DNA from: Solirubrobacteraceae bacterium
GTDB taxonomy: Bacteria > Actinomycetota > Thermoleophilia > Solirubrobacterales > Solirubrobacteraceae
Assembly (NCBI GenBank): GCA_036389195.1
Contig: DASVQH010000432.1
Location: 7,910 to 71,909, forward strand
Length of the DNA: 64,000 bases
Reading direction: 5' to 3'
A program made the position numbers and the translations under genes. Below the pieces are notes generated by a model, which saw only the letters and a list, made by a program, of their open reading frames with translations, did not search any database and was not told the DNA's origin. Shown piece after piece: positions 21,065 through 45,100 of this stretch (position 1 is the first letter of the stretch; every line of letters starts with the position of its first letter).

Positions 21065-23734
21065 TCACGCGACGTCGGCGCCGGCGCCGCAGTGGAGCTC
21101 GACCTTCTCGCGAGCGCGCGCGGCCGCAGCGCTCTCGGGCCCGAGCAGCTTGATGAACGCCTGCAGCGCCAGCCGGAACTCGCGACATGCCTCGCGACCA
21201 TCACCACGAGCGTCGGCGACTTGGCCGAGCCCGTCGTGAGCGAGGGCGACCTGCATGTGGTGTGAGGGCAAATCGCTGCTGCGCCATTGCGTGAGCGTCT
21301 CGGCGAAGCAAGCGGCTGCGGCGTCGGGATCGCCGTTGGCCAACTGGATTCGCCCGAGGTTCACCAACGCCTGAAGCAACGTCGGGTGGCCCTGGGACAG
21401 CTCAGCGCGGCGGATCTCAAGCGCGCGCAGAGCGAGTGGGAGCGCTCCGGCGACATCCCCGCTCAGCCATCGATCGAGCGCCTGGGCGTTGACCGCCAGC
21501 CCGATGAGGAGCCGATCACCTCGTGCTTCGGCAAGCGCCCCGGCCTCCTCATCGAGCGTGAGCGCCGCAGCGAAGCTCGAGGCGTTGCCGGCTTTGCCGT
21601 GAGCGCGGTAGGCGCCGGCGAGCGAGGTCAGGCTGATCACAACGTGAGGATGGTCGTAGGGGAGATGCTTTCGGCGCAGTTCCAGCGCCCGGCGATGATG
21701 GTCCTCGCTGTCGCCGGGGCGCTCGAGGTTCTCGTAGAGCACGCCGAGGTTGGAGAGCGATCGCGCCACGAGCAGCGGGTCGGGCTCGGCGGCGGCCTCA
21801 GCCAGCGCCAGGGTCTCGTTCCAGGCGCGAAGCGCATGCTCGTAGTCGCCCACCGCCCAAGCGATGAGGCCGTCGTTGCTGACGGTGTCGATGACGTTCT
21901 TAGACTCCGGCCGATCTTTCTCGGCGACGACGCGGTCGTGGATCCGTCGCGCGCGCCCTATCAGCTCGCGAGCGCGTTCTGAGTCGCCCCGGCTATGAAG
22001 CGACAGCGCGAGATTCTGTTGCAGATCGGCACGGAGGGTGTCGAGTTCGAGGTCGCCTGTCGGGTCTGCTCCGACCTCCTCCAGGAGCGCGTGCATCAGT
22101 CGCACCGCCTCCTCGGAGTCGATGAAGTCGATCAGCGCCGAGTGGTCGAGCCGTACTCCGGCGCGCACCAGCCGCGGGACGCCGTCGATGGTGAGCGCCT
22201 GCTCGAACAGCTCCCGCGCCTGCTCGTAGAAGCCGCGCTGTTGGAGGTGGGTGGCCATGCGATCGAGCAGATGGACCGTGTCTTCGTCGGCGACACCAAG
22301 CCGGACGGCGTGCCCGCAAGCGACCGTGACGTGACCGACCAGAGGCGCATAGCTCGCAAATGAGCTTGCCAGCTGAGCATCGCCGGTCAGGGCGGCACGC
22401 AGTCCCCGCTGAACGCCGAGGATCCACGAGGGATCTTCTGGCTGCATGCGCCGCGTGACCTCCGCGACGAGGGCGTGCATCGATACGTGGGCGGGATCCA
22501 CCGCGACGACCGAGCGCGCGGCGAGCGCGCCAAGCGCGAGGTCTACCTCGATCTCGTTCAGTGCTTGTTCGGCTCTTGGCGCCGCCTGCAGCACGTGCAT
22601 CATGGCCCTGCGCGGCAGCTGTTCTGCGTCGAGGTATGAGAGCGCTCGCAGCGCGGTCGCCGCCAGGGGATGGCGCTCGGAGTCGATGGCATCGAGCGCC
22701 AGTGACAAGGTGACCAACACGGTGGCGTCGTAGTCCTCGGCTTGCGGCTGCGTTCCGAGCAGCTCGACAGCTGCGGTGTCGAACAGCTGCAGATAGCGTT
22801 CGAGGTCCACCCCGGTCGCCTCCACGTAGGAGGCCGCCTGTTCCAGGGCGAGTGGGAGTCCGCCGAGTCGACGGACGAGCGCACCTCCTCGCGCGTCGCC
22901 AGTTCGAGTCTTCAGATAGTCCGCGCCAATCGTCTCATCGAGCGGCGGCACCCGCTGGGGGTGGCCGAGACGTCGCCACGCCGGGCTCGTCGAGGTGATG
23001 AGGATGTGGCCGGCCGGGTCTTCAGGCAGCCACGGCTCGAGGGCGCTGGCGTCGGGCGCTCGGTCGAAGATCAGCAGGTAGTCGTCGCGCTCGGCCAGGA
23101 ACGCCCGGATTGCCTGGTGCCCTGCGCTCAGATCGTCGTCGAGCTCGATGCCGACATCGGCGGCGAAGGCGCGTAGCCCGCGCAAGATGGCTCCGGAGGA
23201 GGCGTCCACCCAGTAGACGACGCGGTAATCGCGCGCCTGGCGGTACGCGAAAGTCACCGCCAGCTGGGTCTTGCCGATGCCACTGAGACCGTAGAGCGCT
23301 TGGACGGGGTGCTCGCGCAGCCGCTCGCCGATCTCGTGCAACATCTCGTCGCGTCCGGCGAGGCGCCGATTGAGCGGGTGGGGAACATCCCAGACCACCG
23401 GCCCGCCGGACATCGGCATGGCCCGGGCGCGGACGCGCTCTTCGTGCGAGGTCTTCCAGGCCAGCAGGACTTCGCGGGGATGGTCGTCGGGTGCCCTGTC
23501 AGCGATCCGATGATGAGTAGGGCAGAGCAGGACGCGATTCTCGTAGCTGTCAGAACCAGCGTGTCGACCATCGCCACGTGGACCCCGCGGGCTCCGCGGG
23601 ATGATGTGCGCGTGCTCGCCGACGATGAACCGGCCGGCGTTCGGCATTTCGAGGGTCAGCTCGATCCCGCAGTCGGGCGCTGAGCAGCGGCCGGCGGCTC
23701 GGCCCCACAGAAGCGCGACATCGGCGACCTTCAT
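21065..23734 (-). CDS. HNH nuclease - NB-ARC (STAND NTPase) - TPR protein (889 aa)
   Basis: N-terminal HNH: 'CSAPDCG...GEHAHIIPRS...YENRVLLCPTHHRIAD'. NB-ARC: Walker A 'GLSGIGKTQLA', Walker B 'YLLIFDRA', 'GGLPLALEQAASY'. C-terminal TPR repeats such as 'SLSNLGVLYENLERPGDSEDHHRRALEL'. I chose the ATG at 23734 ('MKVADVALLWG'); the track ORF extends to 23983 through an Arg/Pro-rich, non-protein-like stretch. Confidence 0.85.
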   Translation of the reverse strand: MKVADVALLWGRAAGRCSAPDCGIELTLEMPNAGRFIVGEHAHIIPRSPRGPRGDGRHAGSDSYENRVLLCPTHHRIADRAPDDHPREVLLAWKTSHEERVRARAMPMSGGPVVWDVPHPLNRRLAGRDEMLHEIGERLREHPVQALYGLSGIGKTQLAVTFAYRQARDYRVVYWVDASSGAILRGLRAFAADVGIELDDDLSAGHQAIRAFLAERDDYLLIFDRAPDASALEPWLPEDPAGHILITSTSPAWRRLGHPQRVPPLDETIGADYLKTRTGDARGGALVRRLGGLPLALEQAASYVEATGVDLERYLQLFDTAAVELLGTQPQAEDYDATVLVTLSLALDAIDSERHPLAATALRALSYLDAEQLPRRAMMHVLQAAPRAEQALNEIEVDLALGALAARSVVAVDPAHVSMHALVAEVTRRMQPEDPSWILGVQRGLRAALTGDAQLASSFASYAPLVGHVTVACGHAVRLGVADEDTVHLLDRMATHLQQRGFYEQARELFEQALTIDGVPRLVRAGVRLDHSALIDFIDSEEAVRLMHALLEEVGADPTGDLELDTLRADLQQNLALSLHSRGDSERARELIGRARRIHDRVVAEKDRPESKNVIDTVSNDGLIAWAVGDYEHALRAWNETLALAEAAAEPDPLLVARSLSNLGVLYENLERPGDSEDHHRRALELRRKHLPYDHPHVVISLTSLAGAYRAHGKAGNASSFAAALTLDEEAGALAEARGDRLLIGLAVNAQALDRWLSGDVAGALPLALRALEIRRAELSQGHPTLLQALVNLGRIQLANGDPDAAAACFAETLTQWRSSDLPSHHMQVALAHDGLGQVADARGDGREACREFRLALQAFIKLLGPESAAAARAREKVELHCGAGADVA

Positions 23735-23937
23735 TCGCCCGAAGTATGGCGCCAGCCGTGCCGGAGGTGTCGAGGCGGGCCGGCTCTTGGAGCGTGACCC
23801 GACGCTGTGCCTCGCCCGGACGCGTCTCAGGCGTCGGGCACGGCTTCGACGGGGATGCCGTCCCGGCTTCGACGGCCGCAACACTGCGAGAAGGCCCGTC
23901 GAGGAGCTCTGGAAAGACCAGGTGCAGCACGGTCCGA

Positions 23938-24560
23938 CTAGCGGTCGTCGCTGCCGTCCAGGTCCAGCGACGCTAGCCGCCACCGCAGCGCGTACCTCGT
24001 GTGTGGCTCTCCGGCTTCGAGCGACCAGCTCATCGGCGTGTCATCAGTTCGCTCCACTTCGTAGGACTGCAGCTCCCGCCGGTTGTTGAGCTGACGGATC
24101 TCATGCACGCGGCGATAGCGGGGCGCCCGGCGGCGAGACACATCGGCGGTGAGGGCGAGCTTGGAGGGGAAGCTGGCGACGTCGATGGCAAGAGACGCCT
24201 CGGGGTCTGCGAGGTCGAAGTGCAGAGCTTCGGTGGTGCTCACCTCGACGGGTACACCGACCTGAAGGGGTGTCTCCAGGCCGACCACGAGCCGCTGCGG
24301 TCCATCAGGATGCGGTAGGCCTCAATCGAGAACGTCGTCCTCAGCTCCCAGATCGGTTCAGCGCGCCGCTCCACAAGGGAGACGGCGTAGGCAAGCGGGA
24401 AGTACCCCGGCCGCGAGTCAAGTCCAGGTGGGCCGCCGGCCCGTCCTCGAAGTAGGCCAGAAGACGCCGAACCAGGTCGTCCTGCAGCCCTCCCCGCGCG
24501 GGGACGGTCGACTGCGCCTGCTGTCGTGGCAGGTCTGGCGTTTCGCCCGCCAATCGCTGA
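23938..24560 (-). pseudogene. Frameshifted gene of unknown function (three frames)
   Basis: The coding-like signal (high GC3) passes through three minus-strand frames. Frame 1: '...GGLQDDLVRRLLAYFEDGPAAHLDL'. Shift near 24415. Frame 2: 'YFPLAYAVSLVERRAEPIWELRTTFSIEAYRILMD'. Shift near 24290. Frame 3: 'VVGLETPLQVGVPVEV...YALRWRLASLDLDGSDDR*'. Confidence 0.45.
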
Positions 24561-24723
24561 CGCTCGCCTGCGCGCGATGCGCGACAACTCTTCGCGTGCG
24601 CGGTTGGGGCCTCCGCGACCTTGCTCAGTGGCGCTGCCGGGCACACCGGGACGCTATCGAGCAGAAAGCCAGCACGATTCGAGCAGGACGGCAGCACGTT
24701 CGAGCGTACGGTCAGAAGCCGCC

Positions 24724-24963
24724 ATGGACACTGAGCGCCTGAACCTCATCATCGGCGTTGCCGGCCTCATCACCGGCTGTGCCGGGCTCGTAGGAACGAC
24801 CTTGTCTTTGCTCGTCGGCCCGGTAGCCGTCGTTGTCGTCCTCGCGTTCCTGCTTGGCGTCGCGATCGGCGGCGCGAGCGGTGCGTTGCTGAGCGGTCGG
24901 CGCCGCAGGACGCAGACCAGGGACGAACCCTCAGGCTCTTCGTCGGAGTCGCCCCGCCTCTGA
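24724..24963 (+). CDS. Small membrane protein (79 aa, two hydrophobic helices)
   Basis: 'MDTERLNLIIGVAGLITGCAGLVGTTLSLLVGPVAVVVVLAFLLGVAIGGASGALL' followed by a basic/Ser-rich tail. ATG at 24724 lies inside track ORF 24526..24963. Confidence 0.4.
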   Translation: MDTERLNLIIGVAGLITGCAGLVGTTLSLLVGPVAVVVVLAFLLGVAIGGASGALLSGRRRRTQTRDEPSGSSSESPRL

Positions 24964-25401
24964 GTGTGTAGACCCTCGGCGGGACTCGGGCGGCTGACAG
25001 CACCGGCGGCGCTCTTCGGATCGGGAGGCGATCCACGCGACCGTGATTCGGCGCTGGTTCTGGCGAAGGAACGACGGTGCGGGGGTTCCCGGCCCACACA
25101 CTCCCGGAGGACTTCGACCGTCCCTGTATCCGCTGTCGAGCCGCGATCGCCGCTTGGCGTTTCGACCGGATTCAGCCCGGGGTCAGAGCGAGGGCAATCG
25201 CCAGCACCGCGGCACCGTCCAGTCAGCGAACTGTCGGGGCCGCCCGCGGCGAGCAGGGTCAGAAGGCGGTCGTGTCCTCCTGGTGGCAGCGAAGACGTCG
25301 CGAGCCCTATCGCCCGATGAGCGGTGCGCCTAGACCCGCTCGTCGAGCCGGAACCCACCCGATCCGCTTCCGGAGCCCATTCGCGGCGTCGGGCGGAAAC
25401 A

Positions 25402-25417
25402 GGGTGGCCAACCACCC
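25402..25417 (-). terminator. Hairpin GGGTGG-TTGG-CCACCC immediately after the stop of the 318-aa gene
   Basis: The minus strand reads TGA GGGTGGTTGGCCACCC TGTTTCC. This is a 6-bp GC stem, 4-nt loop and a short T-containing tail. Confidence 0.3.
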
Positions 25418-26374
25418 TCACGCATTGTCCTGAGCTCTTGCCGGTAGCGCCGCGACCAGCCGGCTGGCAGCCTCGATCGCCGCGTGCATCTCTTGGCCCA
25501 GACGCTGGGCCAGCAGGTTGGGCGCCCCTTCGTCGGCGGTCGGCGTGCCGATCAGCTCCACGTCGCGAACGCCGCCTTTGAGCAGCAGCGGCGCGGCCGT
25601 GAAGAACTGGTACGGGGCATAGATCGCGCTTGTCAGCACCAGCACCGAGCTGCGGCGCTCGACCGAAGTGCGCGAGAGGAAGAAACGAACGGCGTCGGCC
25701 GTCCCTGCCCGGCGCTCGGGGTCGGGAGCCGGCGCCACCAGAAGGCGGAGCCGGTGTCCCTCAGCGTCGCGCAGCGCCTCGTCGCGCCAGCCTGACCACC
25801 CAGCGCCGCCACGGTCGCTGCTCGACTCCCGCAGCGGCCCGAAGGCTCGGTGCAGATAACGCGCGAGGTTGCGCCATTCGGTCTGGTCGTCGGCGCTGTC
25901 GAGTTCGCTTTCGTGCTCGCGGGCGCTCAACGGGCGCTCGGCTGACAGCCCCGCCAGCTCGTCGAAGTGAGTGCCGGTCTCGACCAGTTCGGCGGCGAGT
26001 GTGACGCGAAGGCGATTTCCGGTGGTCGCCCCGCCCAGCACCAGGCCGCAGTCGTAGCTCCGGCGCGTCGGCGGTGCAGTGCGCCGCAGTCCGAGCGGAC
26101 CGGCGGCCTGAAGCAGCGCCTGCACCCAGTCGGGCGGCCAGGTGGCGACTGCGGCATCGCGGCGCTCAGCGCCACGACGGGTGTCGAGCGCGGATGCGCT
26201 CCACGCCCGTAGCGCCTGCGGGCCAGCGCGCGCGGGCGAGGGCGCCTGAAGAGCGTCGAGTAACTCCTCGAGTGCCGGGCTGGCCAGCCAGCCTCGTGCG
26301 CGCGCCACCACGTCTTCGTGCCGACCCGCCCGCCAGGACGGCGTGTCGCTCGGTACGCCGACCGGTCGGTTCAT
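25418..26374 (-). CDS. Hypothetical protein (318 aa), partner of the SIR2-like gene
   Basis: The ATG overlaps the stop of the upstream gene (ATGA at 26371-26374). Only a weak by-eye resemblance to the DUF218/YdcF-type Rossmann-like fold: 'YDCGLVLGGATTGNRLRVTLAAEL', 'RRAGTADAVRFFL', 'SSVLVLTSAIYAPYQ'. Confidence 0.6.
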   Translation of the reverse strand: MNRPVGVPSDTPSWRAGRHEDVVARARGWLASPALEELLDALQAPSPARAGPQALRAWSASALDTRRGAERRDAAVATWPPDWVQALLQAAGPLGLRRTAPPTRRSYDCGLVLGGATTGNRLRVTLAAELVETGTHFDELAGLSAERPLSAREHESELDSADDQTEWRNLARYLHRAFGPLRESSSDRGGAGWSGWRDEALRDAEGHRLRLLVAPAPDPERRAGTADAVRFFLSRTSVERRSSVLVLTSAIYAPYQFFTAAPLLLKGGVRDVELIGTPTADEGAPNLLAQRLGQEMHAAIEAASRLVAALPARAQDNA

Positions 26375-28491
26375 ATGGGCAGCAGCCAGAGAACCCGTGG
26401 TTCGCCGACCGCCATCGCTCCCAGTGAACTAGTCAGGGAAGCGGCGGGCAGTCGTCCGCGCAGGCTCTGCCAGCGTGGCCCGAGATCGCGATCGGAGCAC
26501 AATCCGAGCCCGAGGAGCGCCTGCAGCTCAAGCCAGCCGGCCCCGTTCGCACGGCAGCGTTGCGCCAGCGAGTCGAAGTGTCGGGCGGCCGAGTGCTCGT
26601 TGCCGTCCAAGCGCTCGAGCTCGGCAAGCCCCAGCTGCGCCATGGCTTCGGCGGTGGGCGAGGCGGACCCGCCGACTACCCGGTTGAGCCGCCGACGTGC
26701 GTCCGTCAGATCGTATAGGGCGATGGCCAGGTCGGCCAGGATGAGGTCGAGGTCGTCGCGATAGCGCCCTGAGGCATCGGCAGCGCGTGCCTCTGCCAGG
26801 AGTTCGCCGGCGTTGTCGGGCGCGGACTTCTTCGCCATGGCGACTCGTAGTGTCAACAGCCGTACGGTGCGCAGGTCGTCGAGCAAGCCAGGCCGGCCGT
26901 CGGCCGAGAAGCGGCGCTGCGTCTCGGCGAGCGCTTGAGTCGCGTTCTCGGGGCGGCCCAGGTGGCACAGCGCGACCGCTTGCAGCCAGGCGCCCCAGCC
27001 GCGCCACACGGCGATGGCGTAGCGCCCGCGCCGGAAGCGCAGGTCGAACCCCCGCGCCAGCGCATCGTCGAAGCGGCCGGCGTAGACGGCGGCCAGGCCG
27101 GACTCGAGCAGCGCGCCGGCCAGACGCTCAGGATCAGAGACGGTCTCTGTCTCGAGGCCGCGCGCGGCAGCGTCCGCGTCGGCGCCGGCCAGCGCGGGGC
27201 GGAACTCATAGCGGCGAGCCTGGGCTCGATAGTAGAGGTCGACCGGGTATGGCTGACCATCCGGCCCTCGCCGCACCCGCGTGCTCCACTCCGCGAACTG
27301 CCCGAGCGGTTCCCAGCCGTCTCGCAGGCGCAGCGCGCTCGCCCGGGTGATCAAGTGATCGCGCAGTGGCAAGGGGCGCACCGCGTGCAGTACGCGCCGG
27401 TGTGCCGCCAGCCAGCGCACCAGCCGAGCTGCGGTCCCCGCGTTGTACAAGCTGCGTGTCACGGCCCAGCGCAGGTGGCCGGGGAGCGTGCTCGAGCGTC
27501 GCGCCAGCAGATCGTCCACGCGCGCGGCGCGCAGCGCTTCGGGGTGCACGGCCGGCGCCCCGAAGCGTTCGACCACCCGGGCCTGCACGATGCCCGGCGG
27601 CTCGGCCAGCTCAAGAGTCGGCGGACTCGGAAGGGTGTACGGCGAGATCACCGCCGCGCGGACCTCGGACTCGAGTTCTGTGCCGGCCGCCTCGGCCAGA
27701 TCGAGGAACGCCTGCGCGTTGGCCGCCACGTCGGCGCCCGAGTCGCCGCTCAGGCGGGGGCGGAAGGTCACGCGCTCGATATGCCGGAAGGCCTGCTGCA
27801 CTTCCCGGCGTGGCCCGACGAAGGGCTCATGCCACACCACCTCAGCGGCGCGACGCATCACCTCGTCAAGCAGCTCAGCCAGGTCGGCGTCGGCTCCGGC
27901 GTAGCCGAAGAACACAGCGATCCGGCCTTCCGCCAGCGCCGCCAATCGCTCGAGCTCGGCCGACGGCAGCGGCGACATGAGCTCTCGATCGGTGAAGGCC
28001 ATGCTGATCGGCACCGCTGCGCTGCCGTGCAGCTTGACGAACGTCCCTGGGGCGGCGACGCGCAGAGGCACCAGCAGCTCCGGGGCGCGGTCCGAGGCGC
28101 GTCCCGCCAATGGCGGGTCGATGCCCAACTGCGCGCAGGCGTGCTCAACGCCGAGGTCGACGTTGGTCGTCCACACACAGCCGCCCGCTCTCAGAACCTG
28201 CGCGGCCACCTGGTGCGCTGCGCCGGGCGGCGAGCAGCGAAAGAGCCGAGCCAACTCCTCGGCGAACTGAATTCCGAAGCGCTGCAGCGCACCGAACAGC
28301 ACTTCGGCCGAGAGGTCGGGATCTTTGAAGGCCGGGTAGCGGTCGTGGATCCAGACCCGCTCCGCGTCGGTTCGCGTCGCGCGCCAGCCCATGGCGCCCA
28401 GCACGCCGGCCGCCAGGTCGGGAAAGAGCGGCAAGCTGGTGGGCGGTGCCACCGAAGCGCCCGCGCCAAGGAAGAGAAGCCAGTCATCCAT
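26371..28491 (-). CDS. SIR2-like (SIR2_2) domain protein with C-terminal TPR-like helical repeats (~706 aa)
   Basis: 'LLFLGAGASVAP', 'CVWTTNVDLGVEHA' and 'FVKLHGSAAVP' are the three hallmark SIR2_2 motifs, all intact. The C-terminal ~450 aa are helical-repeat-like. No P-loop seen. I chose the start at ATG 28491 ('MDDWLLFLGAGAS'); the track ORF extends to 28611. Confidence 0.8.
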   Translation of the reverse strand: MDDWLLFLGAGASVAPPTSLPLFPDLAAGVLGAMGWRATRTDAERVWIHDRYPAFKDPDLSAEVLFGALQRFGIQFAEELARLFRCSPPGAAHQVAAQVLRAGGCVWTTNVDLGVEHACAQLGIDPPLAGRASDRAPELLVPLRVAAPGTFVKLHGSAAVPISMAFTDRELMSPLPSAELERLAALAEGRIAVFFGYAGADADLAELLDEVMRRAAEVVWHEPFVGPRREVQQAFRHIERVTFRPRLSGDSGADVAANAQAFLDLAEAAGTELESEVRAAVISPYTLPSPPTLELAEPPGIVQARVVERFGAPAVHPEALRAARVDDLLARRSSTLPGHLRWAVTRSLYNAGTAARLVRWLAAHRRVLHAVRPLPLRDHLITRASALRLRDGWEPLGQFAEWSTRVRRGPDGQPYPVDLYYRAQARRYEFRPALAGADADAAARGLETETVSDPERLAGALLESGLAAVYAGRFDDALARGFDLRFRRGRYAIAVWRGWGAWLQAVALCHLGRPENATQALAETQRRFSADGRPGLLDDLRTVRLLTLRVAMAKKSAPDNAGELLAEARAADASGRYRDDLDLILADLAIALYDLTDARRRLNRVVGGSASPTAEAMAQLGLAELERLDGNEHSAARHFDSLAQRCRANGAGWLELQALLGLGLCSDRDLGPRWQSLRGRLPAASLTSSLGAMAVGEPRVLWLLPI

Positions 28492-28933
28492 CACCTGAGC
28501 GCCATCGTCCCAGAGGCGCGGAGAGACACGCGCCCTGGAACTCGCTTGTGGAGGGCCCTTGGTCCGCGGCCCCACCGCCGACGTCCTCAGAGCTCTAGTC
28601 GGCTGCGTCATCGCCCACTCCGTCGGTGGAGAGTCCAGAGTCGACTGCCGCGCCGCCTACGCCGTCGGCGGAGAGCTCTGGGTCGGCGGCCGCGCCTTCC
28701 CAGCCGCTGCGGCTCGACGCCGAGCCGGACGCTGAGCCCGACCTTGAATAGACACGTCCTAAGCCGACCGATGACCTCGACGGCCGCACCGGCCTTATGA
28801 GCTGTCGACCGTGCTCGGGCGCCTCATCCCGCGATGCCGGTCCTGCCCAGAGCGCGGCGTCCTCACCCTTGCTTCATGCGGTGCTCATCTTCACCGCGGC
28901 TTCGGCGCTGACACCGATTCCCTCCGCGCGTGC

Positions 28934-30901
28934 TCAGACGCCGGCGACCTCGGCGGCCGGCGCCTTACGCGCTCGCAGGGACGCGAACATCGGCAGCAGC
29001 GCCCAGCGCACCACGGCCTGAGTGCCGAAACCGGCGGCGAAGGCGGTGACGTAGTCCTTGGTCGAACCCCAGGTATCGGTGTACAGCGGCACGACGTAGC
29101 CGACGATCGCGACCGCCACCAGCAGCGCGCTGAGCAGCAAACTCTCGCGCGAGATGCGACGCAGCAGCCCCTCGGCGTCCTCTGGCGGCCGCAGGCCGGT
29201 GGCGCCCGTTGCTGCGCTACCGGCCTGCTGGCCGAGCCGCTGCCGGATGCTGACGAGCATCGGCGCGTCGAGCGTGGCTCGCACTGCCGCCCTCGCCCGG
29301 CCGAGCAGCCCCGGTCGCGCGGGAGCCACTGCGTCGGCCGCCGCAGACGCGGCGGCCAGATGAGCCTCGACGGAGATCTGGCGCTGCAGCTCCTCGGCTC
29401 CCACCAGCAGCTCGATGCGTTCGGCGTCATCTCGCACGGGCTCGCCCTTGGGCGGGTCGGTGAAGGCGAACAGATCAGCGGCGAGCGCGGCTCGCTGGGC
29501 AGGATCATCAAGGTCCATGATCGCCCGCCACAGCGCGGCCACCTTGGTGTGCCAATCGCCTTGGCGGCGCAGGCGTGTCACAAGGCGCTCGGCCGCCGTG
29601 TCGTCGGCGGGGGCGTCGCGGACGGCGATCAGTAGACGCTCGGTGTCGCGGTACACGCCAGTGGTGTCCCACTCGCGACCCTCGAGATCGGCGGGATGCT
29701 CCTTGTCGGCGGTATCGCGCAACTCGGCGGTCTGCTCCTCGATGCGCAGCCAGCGCTGCACGCTGGTGATCAGGCTCTGCGCCCAGTCGGTGTCCTCGTC
29801 GAGATCGGCGTCGCTGCGCGCCCAGTGGATGGAGGAGAACAGCCCGGCGGCACCGTGCAGGCCGGGCAGAGCCAGCCACTCTGTCGTGTCCCACGGCTGG
29901 GGTCCGAGCAGCTCGTCGAGGTCGTAGGACAGCGGGTGTTCGCGCTTGGCCCGCTCGCTCTTGTAACGCTCGAGCGCGCCGCGTACGTTGGCCCGCAGCA
30001 CGTTCTTGCGGCGGCTCAGGCCGCCCAGATGTGGCAGCAGCCCGCCGACGAGCGCGCCAGCCAGCACGGTCAGGATCGCCCAGCCGATCCAGTGGTGCGC
30101 GCGCACGGTCAGCTCGACTCTTGGTTCGTCGGTCTGGTCCGAAAGCGGCAGGAAGCCCTTGTACTCGCCGGCTTCGGGCTCGCCCTCGAGGTGCACGGCG
30201 GCTTGGCGTCGACCGTCGCGCTCGACGACGGTCCACCCGACTGTCGCGCTGTGGCCCTCGGCGTTGCGCAGCACCGTGCGCCCGGTCAGCGGATGTGGCT
30301 CGGCCAGCAGGGCGTTGGCACGGGCGCCGGAGAGCACGACGACGGCGTCGTGGCCGCGGAAGCCGCGGCTCCAGAGAATCTCGGTCGTCTGCATCTCGAC
30401 GGTCGACGGACGCGCGACGACGTCGCTCAGCGGCTCGAGCGAGGCACGGACGGACACGGTGAGCGGCGCGACCTGGCGCCGCGCGCGGTCCGTCGGGCGA
30501 GCCTGCATCGTCAGCGTTCCGCTGAGGCGGTCACGGCGGGATCCGTCGGGCAGGCGGAAGCGCAGGCGGATCTCCGCCGAAGCCTGCGCGGCCAGCGTCT
30601 TCGCAGTGTCCTCGTCCGCATTGATGAGCGCGCCGTTGTCGCTGCGCGCCACGGTGGCGCCTTCACTGCCGTCGGCGGGCGTGAAACGCAAGATCAGCCG
30701 ACGACGATCGTCAGTGCTGTTGCGTACGAGCAGCGTCGCTGAAGCGTGGCGCGCGCCGTCGGCGACCGGACCGAGACGGACGTCGAGCTCGGCCTTGGCC
30801 GGAGCCAGCAGCTCGAGCGGGGCCGCGGCCGACGCCGGACCTGCCTCCATGAGCACGGCGGCGAACACGGCTAACAGCGCGCGGCGCAAGGCGAGGGACA
30901 C
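28934..30901 (-). CDS. Secreted/membrane-anchored protein of unknown function (655 aa)
   Basis: Signal-peptide-like N-terminus 'MSLALRRALLAVFAAVLMEAGPASAAAP' (GTG start). A ~260-aa beta-rich region follows. TM helix 'WIGWAILTVLAGALVGGLL', then a ~270-aa helical region. Two C-terminal hydrophobic segments: 'LLLSALLVAVAIVGYVV' and 'VTAFAAGFGTQAVVRWALLPMF'. Confidence 0.65.
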   Translation of the reverse strand: MSLALRRALLAVFAAVLMEAGPASAAAPLELLAPAKAELDVRLGPVADGARHASATLLVRNSTDDRRRLILRFTPADGSEGATVARSDNGALINADEDTAKTLAAQASAEIRLRFRLPDGSRRDRLSGTLTMQARPTDRARRQVAPLTVSVRASLEPLSDVVARPSTVEMQTTEILWSRGFRGHDAVVVLSGARANALLAEPHPLTGRTVLRNAEGHSATVGWTVVERDGRRQAAVHLEGEPEAGEYKGFLPLSDQTDEPRVELTVRAHHWIGWAILTVLAGALVGGLLPHLGGLSRRKNVLRANVRGALERYKSERAKREHPLSYDLDELLGPQPWDTTEWLALPGLHGAAGLFSSIHWARSDADLDEDTDWAQSLITSVQRWLRIEEQTAELRDTADKEHPADLEGREWDTTGVYRDTERLLIAVRDAPADDTAAERLVTRLRRQGDWHTKVAALWRAIMDLDDPAQRAALAADLFAFTDPPKGEPVRDDAERIELLVGAEELQRQISVEAHLAAASAAADAVAPARPGLLGRARAAVRATLDAPMLVSIRQRLGQQAGSAATGATGLRPPEDAEGLLRRISRESLLLSALLVAVAIVGYVVPLYTDTWGSTKDYVTAFAAGFGTQAVVRWALLPMFASLRARKAPAAEVAGV

Positions 30902-41669: not shown

Positions 41670-41890
41670 TTGGAGGTCTACCCGCGCGACGATGATCCCT
41701 GCAGCTGGGCGGGCACGATCTCCAACCTGGGCACGGCGCTGTTCGAGCGCCGGACGGGAGACCTCGCCGCGCACATCGACGCAGCAGTCGCCGCTCACGT
41801 GGGTGCGCTGGAAGTCCGCACACCAGCCGAGCACCCCTGGGAGTGGGCCGCGCCCCGCTTCAATCTGGGGCAGGCGCTGTGGCGCCGCTC
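41670..41890 (+). pseudogene. Orphan TPR-repeat fragment
   Basis: 'WAGTISNLGTALFERRTGDLAAHIDAAVAAHVGALEVRTPAEHPWEWAAPRFNLGQALWRR' matches the W-A-x-NLG-x-A...AL repeat pattern of TPR_10/12-type repeats. It has no N-terminus or continuation. Confidence 0.4.
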
Positions 41891-42083
41891 GTCGGCTTCG
41901 CCTCGGTCGACGAACGCGCCGTGCGGGAAGACAAGTCGCACGGACTCACTGCGCCGCGCGCCGGATGGCTGTCGTCGAGGACGGCCACTGCGAGAAGGTC
42001 CGAGGTCGGAATCTGCGCAAACTGCGGGCTCTGCGTGCGACCACGCTGGCGGCGCACCGTATTCAACGGTAATGATCAGTCGA

Positions 42084-42104
42084 GATTTCGCATTGAGCGA
42101 AATC
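42084..42104 (+). promoter_or_regulatory. Perfect 8-bp stem / 5-nt loop hairpin (GATTTCGC-ATTGA-GCGAAATC) 20 nt upstream of the TcA start
   Basis: Read directly from the sequence. It is embedded in an unusually AT-rich stretch (42061-42105) of an otherwise ~70% GC window. Confidence 0.35.
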
Positions 42105-42124
42105 CCTGGGAACTGGGGCCGCAC

Positions 42125-45100
42125 ATGCGAATCGACAGCGCCGAACAGCTGCACCTCCCAGCATTCGGCGCGGCGAACCCCGCCTTCGACGTGCTCAGAG
42201 CGGACCTGCTCGATGATGACGCGCTCGACAGGCTCGACTGGACCGGGTCCGACCGCGAGGAGGCGGTGCCGACCCTCCGGCGGCTGCAGCGCCTCCTTCG
42301 TATCGAGCCGGACCTAGACACCGTCGCGCGGCTTCTCGACCACGGCTTCGACTCTGCGCAGCACGTCGCGCGGATGCCGCGCACGCGCTTCGTCGAGCTG
42401 CTGGGCGCGGAACTCAACGGAGGACGCGCCCACGCCGCGCGCGTCTATGACAGCGCGCTCACGGTGAAGTCGCGCGCCATGCACCTCGTGGCGAACGTGC
42501 ATGGGCTCGCCTCACCGCACTTCCGCGGCATGCGCGCCAACCACCTCGACGATGCGCTGCCGTCCCACTTCGAGAGCCTCTCCAGCTACGAGGAGATCTT
42601 CGGGTCGCTCGACTACTGCGAGTGCCCGGAGTGTGCGTCAATCCTCGGGCCGGCGGCATACCTGGTCGATCTGCGTCGGATCATCGACCTCGCCGTCACG
42701 CAGGCCAACACCATCCAGGCAGGGCTTGCGTTCGACGCGCGGCGACCGGACATCGGGACGATCGCGCTCACTTGCGCGAACACCGAGGGCGAGGTCCCGT
42801 ACCTTCAGATCGTCGCCGCAGTGCTCGAGCAGACGGTCGGGCCCCTGCTCAACCCGCCGGCCGCGGACTTCGACGCGGTCTATCGGGCCCTCGCCACCGC
42901 CGTCTATCCGTTCGGCCTCCCGTTCAACCTCCCGCTCACACGGATCCGCCGTTACCTCGACGCGCGCGGCGCAAGCCTCGCCGGCGTGTACTCGGCGTTC
43001 GAGACGAGCGACGCGCTCGCCGCCGAGGAGGCGCGCGAGATCCTAGGTCTCACCGCTGAGTCGTTTGCCGCCCTGGCGCCGCCGTCGACGGCGCAGCTCG
43101 CGGCCGTGGTCTCGGCGGACTACGCGTCACCAGTCGGCGCCGACGACCTGCGCGGCCTCGACCACCTCGACGTCTATGAGATCAAGACCGGCCTCCAGAC
43201 CACCGATATCCAGGCCCTCCTCACCCAGGGGCTCGGACCCCAAGAGCTGTACGACACGTCGGGCGTCTACGGGGTGACCGCCGGCAAGGGCACGAAGCTC
43301 ACGCTCGTCCAGGACGGCGCCGCGGTGACCGGGACCTACGACGCGAACGGCGGCTCGGTCGAGGGAGTGATGCAGGGTCCGACGCTCGCCGGAACCTGGC
43401 AGGAGACGAGCGGCGACGCGACGGTGCGGGGTAGCTTCGCCCTGACCTTCGCCGCCGACGGCGGGTCCTTCACCGGCGCCTGGGCGACCAAACTCGGCGC
43501 CACGGGGACGAAGACCGACTGGAGCGGCACCCGGGACCCGTCGACGCCCTCGACGCAGGGGCTGATCCCCCACAGCCTCTTCGTGAACCACGTGCTCGGC
43601 GCGCGGCAGTACCTTCAGCTCACCCGAAACGTCTCCGACCCCGACAACCCGTACGAGCAGATCACGGGCCAGTCGCTCGCCACGCTCGACACGCTGAGCC
43701 GCTTCATACGCCTGGCGCGGGCGCTCGGCTGGTCGTGGGCCGACCTCGACTGGACCCTCACGAGCATCCGGTCGCCGGTCGTCGACGGCTCCGGCAACAT
43801 CACCTCGGGCGCGGAGCTCGACGCGCCGACGCTGGTCGAGCTGGCGAAGGTGGTGCAGCTCGTCGAGGGCTACGGGCTGCCGCTGCCGCTGGTCCAAGCG
43901 CTGTCGTTCGACCTGAAGACCACGGGCCGGGGCAGCGGCGCCAGCTCGGCGGCGCCGTTCGACCTGATCTTCAACGACCCGACGGTCCTGGCGCAGTCGC
44001 TCGGCCGCGCCCCTTATCACCCGGAGTTCAAGGGCACGGGCGGCTTCCCCAACCCGCTCTACCGCGACACGGTGCAGGACTGGACGATCGGATCGACCGG
44101 CGGCGGGACGCCCGCGGGCCAGATCGTCGCGAGCCTGCCGGCCGCGCCCGGGGACCTTCAGCGCATCGCCGTGGCTCTGTTCGGCGCCGACGCGACCGTA
44201 CCCCTGACGGTGGCCAACCTGTCGGCCCTCCACCGCCACACGGCGCTGGCCACCGAGCTCGGGCTGGACGGCGGCTCGTACGTGACGTTGGCCGGGCTTG
44301 TCGGGCTGGCCGCTGAAGGTTCGCTGCCGCTTGCACTCGACCGCGACCAGACGCTGAAGCTGCTGACCACCGCCCGTTGGATCGCGGGGACCGGGCTGAG
44401 CGTCGACGACGGCGCCTACATCGTGGCGGGCACCGCGGCGCCCAGTGTCACCATCGGCTACGATCCCGCGGGCCTCCCCGGCTTTCTGGCTGGGCTCGCC
44501 CAGTTCTTCCAGCCGGCGCTCGTCAGCGCGGCGACCTTCGAGTCGCAACTCGTCGACGGCCCCACCGCGGAGGCGGTCCTCCAGCCGCTTATCAACCAAG
44601 GCTACGTTGACCCGCTCGGCGTGGTGGCGAAGGACCCCGCCGCGACGGCGCCCGACTTGTCGGACCTCGCCGGCTACGCCCCGGCGATCGGGGCGCTGTC
44701 CGCGGCCCAGCAGGTCGACGTCCTGGCACGGCTGAGCGCGGCGCGCGCGCGTCAGCAGGCGTCGCTCGGCAGCCAGCTCAGCGGGCTGCTCGGCCTGGCT
44801 CAGACTGCGGCGGTCACCCTCGCCGCCGGGTCTGCGGCCTGGCTGCGGCTCGCCGACCCTGTCGAGCCGTTCATGACCAACCCGCTGTTCAGCGTCGCGC
44901 CGGCCAGCGTGTTCGTCGCCGGCGCACTCGACCCGGCCCGCGTGCAGGCCGCCTTCGGGCTGCACGGCATCACGCTCGAGGCCGTGCCGGAGATCGACAC
45001 CCTCACCGTCACGAGCTGGGAGGTGACCGCGACCGAGAACGATGCGGCGGTCGGTTTCACCGCCGTCATGCCGGACGGCGAGACGGTGACGTTCTACGCG

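Follow-up and report, generated by a model that had tools for sequence, protein, structure and literature searches.

A candidate two-gene SIR2-based defence cassette pairing a SIR2-TPR protein with an Rv3785_N-like partner in a Solirubrobacteraceae bacterium

A 64,000-nucleotide (nt) stretch of contig DASVQH010000432.1 from a Solirubrobacteraceae bacterium (assembly GCA_036389195.1, positions 7,910–71,909; G+C ~70%), hereafter called the window, carries two overlapping genes on its minus strand: gene A (26371–28491), encoding a SIR2-TPR protein of 706 amino acids (aa), and gene B (25418–26374), encoding a 318-aa alpha/beta protein that probably belongs to the Rv3785_N family (PF27209-like). 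On the best reading, the pair would represent a two-gene variant of SIR2 NAD+-depletion defence that has not been described before. We consider it somewhat probable that it is a horizontally mobile anti-phage cassette of the abortive-infection type, in which a SIR2 NADase is gated or complemented by its coupled partner. SIR2-mediated NAD+ depletion is a main effector strategy in bacterial immunity, and the systems that use it differ in how the NADase is kept off and switched on. An earlier sequence-only reading of the window had put the pair forward as a candidate new SIR2-based defence module; the conserved pairing, the lack of a PADLOC model and the recurrent defence context support that proposal, and it is from these that we infer a defence role.

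Direct reading of the junction (ccc ATA TGA / ATG AAC) revealed that the gene A stop codon (26371–26373) overlaps the gene B ATG (26372–26374), giving an ATGA stop/start overlap at 26371–26374, so the two minus-strand open reading frames (ORFs) are arranged as the sequence-only reading had described. The overlap suggests translational coupling of the two genes, and at most homologous loci they also overlap or are separated by ≤20 nt. The longest gene A ORF reaches 28611 (746 aa), but 28491 was preferred as the start because the NCBI 706-aa product, which is 100% identical to gene A, and most homologs begin there, at the MDDW position (MDDWLLFLGAGAS). The translation from 28491, with N-terminus MDDWLLFLGAGAS, includes VWTTNVD and VKLHGS. 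Gene A has 59 near-full-length homologs at 39–63% identity, and gene B was accepted as a real gene because it has 74 homologs.

The N-terminal part of gene A (~residues 1–270; 27682–28491, minus strand) is predicted to be a SIR2_2 NADase domain. Pfam SIR2_2 (PF13289) matched residues 105–217 at 28.7 bits against a cut-off of 24.5, and homologs of gene A carry the same family. Across 29 aligned homologs (40–64% identity), G9-A-G-A-S13, T108, N110, D112, K153, H155 and G156 were invariant, and gene A has the GxGxS Rossmann loop and the catalytic Asn/Asp and His that define SIR2_2 sirtuins. The motifs GAGAS (9–13), TTNVD (107–112, with N110 and D112) and KLHGS (153–157, with H155), all three of which had been claimed as kept, are indeed intact. 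In defence sirtuins GAGAS forms the NAD-binding loop and the Asn and His are catalytic, as established for ThsA and DSR2. CxxC pairs able to form a zinc ribbon are absent from the gene A sequence; in Thoeris, DSR, SIR2-HerA and SPARSA, the NADase effectors are SIR2_2-type sirtuins that likewise have no zinc ribbon (PMC11850899, PMC11514289). We infer from this sequence signature that gene A probably has NADase activity.

The AlphaFold2 (AF2) model of gene A (predicted local distance difference test, pLDDT, 92.8; predicted template modelling score, pTM, 0.91) showed an alpha/beta domain that ends near residue 250, after which come about twenty helices. Residues ~251–680 are entirely helical, forming a TPR-like solenoid of ~430 aa, close to the helical-repeat C-terminus of ~450 aa proposed previously. 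In Foldseek searches, the helical part retrieved the TPR solenoids of APPBP2, anaphase-promoting complex subunits, MalT domain III and Rap proteins (E 3e-5 to 1e-3), and the SIR2 part retrieved the SPARSA SIR2 subunit 8y80_E and DSR2 8wyb, all with low TM-scores. Together with a weak Pfam TPR_21 match, the model assigns ~residues 271–706 (26374–27681, minus strand) to a TPR-like alpha-solenoid. This region ends in a near-invariant tail, G-x-P-R-V-L-W-x-x-T (window 26374–26410, minus strand), in which L701 and W702 are invariant and which is better conserved than the preceding helices; this PRVLW tail might serve to dock the partner. By analogy with DSR2, MalT and Rap, the solenoid itself may bind a protein, be it the partner, a phage product or both.

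Neither Pfam nor PADLOC (release 2.0, 2023) found an NTPase, SLOG, TIR, HerA, APAZ or pAgo domain in gene A, which bears out the earlier claim that domains of this kind are lacking. The only PADLOC matches to gene A were weak ones to pAgo-associated SIR2 proteins over residues 88–215. The DSR1, DSR2, ThsA and HerA models gave no PADLOC match to it (for DSR, none at E ≤ 1), and there was no NCBIfam or PHROGs match.

Gene B itself matched nothing in the Pfam, PADLOC, NCBIfam and PHROGs libraries; the Pfam library that was scanned is older than the PF27209 model, and PF27209 assignments are taken from precomputed annotation. Such annotation records PF27209 (Rv3785_N) in about 60 of the 74 gene B homologs, some marked weak. 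The homologs that carry it mostly share 40–56% identity with gene B, and neighbourhood tables name the family 'Rv3785_N'; the window gene B has no precomputed match of its own. An exhaustive profile search with the gene B family retrieved 1423 cluster representatives (50% identity) at E ≤ 1e-3, 226 of them at E ≤ 1e-30. The sequence-only reading had called the partner a protein of unknown fold. That stands insofar as the AF2 model (pLDDT 94.4, pTM 0.92) has no significant match in the PDB or BFVD, but the protein is not without a family, as most of its homologs carry PF27209.

In the gene B model, an N-terminal helical bundle precedes a Rossmann-like alpha/beta core into which a beta-meander is inserted. 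Its conserved motifs are LDxRxGxER, LGGxTTGNxLR, RRAxTxD, TSxIYxPYQ, ExxGTPT and QRxxQExHA; a Gly-rich loop follows the first strand, and many Arg and Glu residues are invariant. Across the wide family, W29, R66, L94, G95, L113, G115, R123, R147, E153, E166, G276 and E295 do not vary, which suggests a ligand-binding or catalytic pocket. Foldseek searches of the PDB returned nothing significant (best E 0.0096, TM below 0.3), and those of BFVD returned only weak matches to a phage DUF218 protein, a LabA-like protein and YspA/SLOG proteins, which are compatible with a generic Rossmannoid core and no more. A PDB sequence search with the partner profiles gave no hit for A1 and, for A4, one non-significant pantothenate synthetase (E 0.19). 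The faint DUF218/YdcF-like pattern once noted in gene B did not hold up: Pfam found no match in gene B and four homologs, hhalign against E. coli YdcF, SanA and ElyC gave a probability of 0.24%, and the only trace was the non-significant BFVD match to the phage DUF218 protein (E 0.079, TM 0.52 normalised on the 170-aa target).

To describe the conservation of the pair, we compared the loci of relatives (labelled L0xx). The partner was found within 2 kb of the SIR2-TPR gene in ~19 of 20 loci, not all of which are independent. It lay immediately downstream and co-directional in the window and in L006, L007, L010, L014, L024/L025, L026, L031–L037, L049 and L050, was divergently transcribed in L008 and L027, and in L048 lay 1.7 kb upstream of the SIR2-TPR gene with two genes between. 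Contigs of identical length in the gene A and gene B homolog lists implied ten further pairs. None of eight flanking ORFs of the window had a homolog in any related locus, and we therefore take the two genes alone to be the mobile unit. The neighbourhood check proposed with the sequence-only reading thus returned a pair that is kept while its flanks are unshared. The two genes have also diverged together: pairwise identities over 16 pairs gave a mirror-tree r of 0.78, a value reached in 0/5000 Mantel permutations.

The cassette is restricted to Actinomycetota. The SIR2-TPR distribution is patchy (~60 clusters at 90% identity), the cassette site differs in every genome, and pseudogenisation is frequent among the family loci. 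These observations bear on a housekeeping or regulatory alternative, in which the SIR2 protein would be a protein deacylase or ADP-ribosyltransferase that regulates a partner enzyme in metabolism, for example in cell-envelope synthesis. The partner family is named after a chromosomal gene of Mycobacterium tuberculosis, Rv3785, which we take to lie near arabinogalactan genes, and some distant partner relatives are found among metabolic genes. However, the literature on Rv3785 deals with polymorphisms only and reports no function, and the partner belongs to no recognised housekeeping family, its homologs carrying PF27209, for which no function is known; membership of such a family was the other outcome that would have spoken against the sequence-only proposal. 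The SIR2_2-type domain without zinc-ribbon cysteines and the mobile-element and defence neighbours of the pair also speak against such a role. We judge it highly improbable in view of the scattered occurrence of the cassette, its changing surroundings and the decay of its genes.

Defence genes were found within 10 kb of the pair in five loci (the window, L026, L027, L049 and L050). In the window, a minus-strand gene 1.4 kb downstream of the pair (21065–23983) encodes a 972-aa HNH-STAND-TPR protein with a CBASS-type HNH domain (PADLOC, 5e-23), a weak nSTAND6 match and TPRs; by its domain content, it is an Avs-like single-gene defence candidate. L026 has a restriction-enzyme-like helicase (2e-120), ParE and an integrase as neighbours, L027 a second, ThsA-like SIR2, L049 PDC-S28 (5.7e-113) and a TrwC relaxase, and L050 PD-Lambda-3_B (4.5e-70) and ArdC. 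The neighbours in L024 are DUF4238 and the anti-restriction protein ArdC (ArdcN). Pairing across varied contexts and defence or mobile-element neighbours, the generic marks of a two-gene defence cassette, are both seen here.

The partner family also occurs outside the pair. A genome scan with the partner profile yielded 23 loci, with a SIR2-TPR gene in 5/23. In L003 (2810–8073) and L011 (1–3739), a TIR_2-nSTAND1-WD40 gene (TIR_2, 83 bits) lies immediately downstream of the partner in convergent orientation, with a gap of ~30 nt. In L053 (2456–6532), a DUF4062-STAND protein is encoded 19 nt downstream and co-directionally (DUF4062, 29.7 bits against a cut-off of 24.7); an apparent 'NAD synthase' beside the partner in this locus proved to be a PP-loop protein of the GMP-synthase type and is not counted as evidence. 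In L051, the gene of a 931-aa winged helix-turn-helix (wHTH) protein overlaps the partner gene and an NB-ARC-TPR gene is nearby, and in L018, from a Clostridia metagenome-assembled genome (MAG), the gene of a 631-aa membrane and helical protein overlaps it. In L054, on the conjugative Rhodococcus ruber plasmid pYYL1.1 (129833–132252), a CHAT protease gene is directly upstream of the partner-family gene, a TPR protein is convergent with it and an NYN-domain gene lies upstream. Fusions of the partner domain to STAND P-loop NTPases also occur, with the domain at the N-terminus of fusion protein P0243 (1404 aa, from a low-GC organism) and at the C-terminus of P0211 (1213 aa, actinobacterial); inspected by eye, the N-terminus of P0211 resembles a Cys/His protease-type domain. 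We also considered whether the helical domain of gene A is a common TPR core with exchangeable effectors, homologous to the proteins encoded beside distant partner relatives. This was rejected: when the SIR2-TPR alignment (A2) was compared by hhalign with the upstream protein of L018, P0211, P0243, the TPR protein of L054 and the 931-aa protein of L051, the probabilities were below 1%.

The family thus stands beside three unrelated NADase folds: SIR2 (~19 loci), TIR_2 (L003 and L011) and DUF4062 (L053), the last of which was recently shown to act as a TIR-like NADase in defence against phages (bioRxiv 10.64898/2026.05.01.722283). This raises an alternative in which the partner would be not a sensor but an enzyme or binder for NAD+, ADP-ribose (ADPR) or nicotinamide that serves NADases of several unrelated folds; it might destroy ADPR to block NAD+ rebuilding by the phage, or make or read an ADPR-derived signal. 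Reconstitution of NAD+ from ADPR by phages is known (bioRxiv 10.1101/2024.02.11.579819), and the Gly-rich loop after the first strand, with the many invariant Arg and Glu residues, would fit such a ligand. However, the TIR genes converge on the partner gene instead of being co-transcribed with it and come from two related MAGs only, the DUF4062 case is one locus, and the other neighbours (the CHAT protease, the transmembrane-helical protein and the wHTH protein) are not NADases. The partner furthermore shows no significant similarity to known NAD- or ADPR-binding folds, and we regard this alternative as unlikely. Rather doubtful, too, is the wider proposal that the Rv3785_N-like protein is a widespread NAD+/ADP-ribose-centred conflict component, recruited independently by SIR2, TIR and DUF4062/NIR folds and built into STAND receptors. 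If that were true, the SIR2-TPR pair would be the founding member of a new family of defence systems whose fold has no solved relative, and the Rv3785_N-like protein might destroy or convert the ADP-ribose or nicotinamide released by NADases and thereby keep phages from rebuilding NAD+, or make or read an ADPR-derived signal.

Partner genes without a SIR2 gene bear on a third alternative, in which the SIR2-TPR protein would be a constitutively dangerous NADase and the partner its neutralising antidote, which stress or infection would cause to be released or degraded. The overlap and co-inheritance of the two genes agree with this, and so does an asymmetry: a solo SIR2-TPR gene is rare (1 of ~20 loci), whereas solo partners persist in Pseudonocardiaceae. 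Most of these solo copies nevertheless derive from approximately one syntenic locus (L002, L005, L009, L017, L019 and L023), which is flanked by a MobA-like NTP transferase gene and an HTH_31 regulator gene. The copies are intact, truncated, internally deleted or fragmentary, with decay in most, and look like remnants rather than kept antidotes; from their sequences, we read the locus as a probable remnant of one ancestral cassette. The partner is also large (318 aa) and encoded downstream, it has enzyme-like invariant residues across >1400 clusters, and in STAND fusions its domain occupies the usual effector or sensor positions. We consider a toxin–antidote pair quite unlikely.

Under the favoured reading of a mobile defence cassette, gene A would act as a sirtuin-like NADase whose C-terminal TPR solenoid serves as a protein-binding, regulatory scaffold, and gene B would be its obligate, translationally coupled partner. 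The conserved gene B pocket, which sits on a Rossmann-like core and contains many Arg, Glu, Asp and Tyr residues, would probably bind or act on a nucleotide-like ligand, and gene B would gate or complement the gene A NADase, presumably within a physical complex of the two proteins. For gene B, we tentatively lean towards a sensor or regulatory subunit, with a ligand-binding subunit favoured because of the conservation pattern, the Gly-rich loop and the placement in STAND proteins. A role as an NAD- or ADPR-directed enzyme is less probable, and is retained because the family associates with three unrelated NADase folds. That gene B is an antidote is less probable still, and is kept in view because solo partners and solo SIR2 genes are asymmetric.

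Several observations weigh against a mobile defence cassette. The closest solo partner relatives (~51% identity), in Pseudonocardiaceae, have no SIR2 gene within 10 kb, and two distant family members lie in unremarkable, non-defence contexts. One SIR2-TPR locus, L030, lacks the partner in the 1.2 kb of downstream sequence available. Searches of IMG/VR, INPHARED and PHROGs turned up no phage or prophage relatives and lend no support to a phage or prophage origin of the pair. PADLOC 2.0 has no known-system match for the partner or the pair, although newer PADLOC or DefenseFinder releases may name it. The family is rare and is known almost only from MAGs and metagenomes, and its frameshift and context calls carry assembly uncertainty.

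If the favoured reading is correct, the cassette adds to SIR2 defence a control or accessory module without a described relative, as judged from PADLOC, the literature and structural matches. The module recurs beside TIR, DUF4062 and CHAT effectors and inside STAND receptors, and its function could explain many unannotated loci, including the Rv3785 family. The defence repertoire of Actinomycetota, a phylum of importance for industrial phage resistance, is poorly explored.

The remaining features of the window surround the pair. The upstream intergenic region (28492–28933, minus strand), between gene A and an upstream 655-aa gene, presumably contains the cassette promoter; no sigma-70-like site was found on its minus strand. 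The 655-aa protein (28934–30901, minus strand) has coding-type G+C at third codon positions and no Pfam, PADLOC, PHROGs or PDB match, and its gene was rejected as a cassette member, not being conserved with the pair. The ENA copy of the contig annotates a gene at a 255-aa GTG-start ORF (24654–25421, minus strand) that overlaps the gene B stop (GTGA); its product has a high Arg, Ser and Pro content but no homolog at related loci, and the ORF was rejected as a third operon gene and is probably spurious. Farther away, the window contains a complete Tc toxin-complex locus (41843–51373 and 55583–62644, plus strand), comprising a 3176-aa protein similar to TcA subunits (YenA2, TcdA and XptA; E 2.6e-138) and a 2354-aa protein similar to fused TcB-TcC (TcdB2-TccC3; E 3.5e-220). 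Such a locus is unusual for a Solirubrobacteraceae soil MAG.

Comparison with known systems placed the pair outside the Thoeris, DSR, SIR2-HerA and SPARSA architectures, as the sequence-only reading had proposed: PADLOC holds no matching model, and its weak pAgo-SIR2 matches cover the core only. No description of the pair was found in the full-text literature, although subscription journals might hold one. SPARSA (SIR2-APAZ with a short pAgo) has the closest SIR2 core (PADLOC Aga_SIR2, 4e-5; 8y80_E, 5.5e-4), but these matches are confined to residues 88–215, gene A lacks an APAZ domain and the neighbourhood has no Argonaute gene. The pair differs from SIR2-HerA in that a scan of the neighbours found no HerA or P-loop partner, and gene B has no PADLOC match. 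Type I Thoeris (ThsA SIR2-SLOG with ThsB TIR) shares the two-gene logic, with a SIR2 NADase controlled via a Rossmann-like nucleotide-binding module. In contrast to Thoeris, Pfam found no SLOG or TIR domain in gene A or gene B, neither Pfam scans of the neighbours nor the precomputed Pfam annotation of the called genes within ±10 kb revealed a TIR, and the fold resemblance of gene B to SLOG/YspA proteins is non-significant (E 0.2). Type II antitoxins are small, labile proteins with a DNA-binding domain, usually encoded upstream, that directly neutralise the toxin, whereas gene B is a 318-aa protein encoded downstream with an enzyme-like alpha/beta fold and no HTH.

Avs5/SIR2-STAND proteins have a STAND NTPase between the effector and the repeats, whereas gene A has no STAND NTPase or P-loop and only helical repeats after its SIR2 domain. 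What gene A shares with Avs5 and other Avs proteins is an effector joined to a repeat-type sensor region, and the partner domain is itself fused to STAND in P0243 and P0211. DSR1 and DSR2 differ from the pair in that DSR2 is a single gene of ~1000 aa rather than 706 aa with a second gene, the TM-score is ~0.25 and PADLOC gives no DSR match. In DSR2, binding of a phage protein by the solenoid releases the NADase activity. Like DSR2, gene A has an N-terminal SIR2 NADase domain, as predicted, followed by a long alpha-solenoid, and the DSR2 structures 8wyb and 8z18 were retrieved by Foldseek at E ~1e-3.

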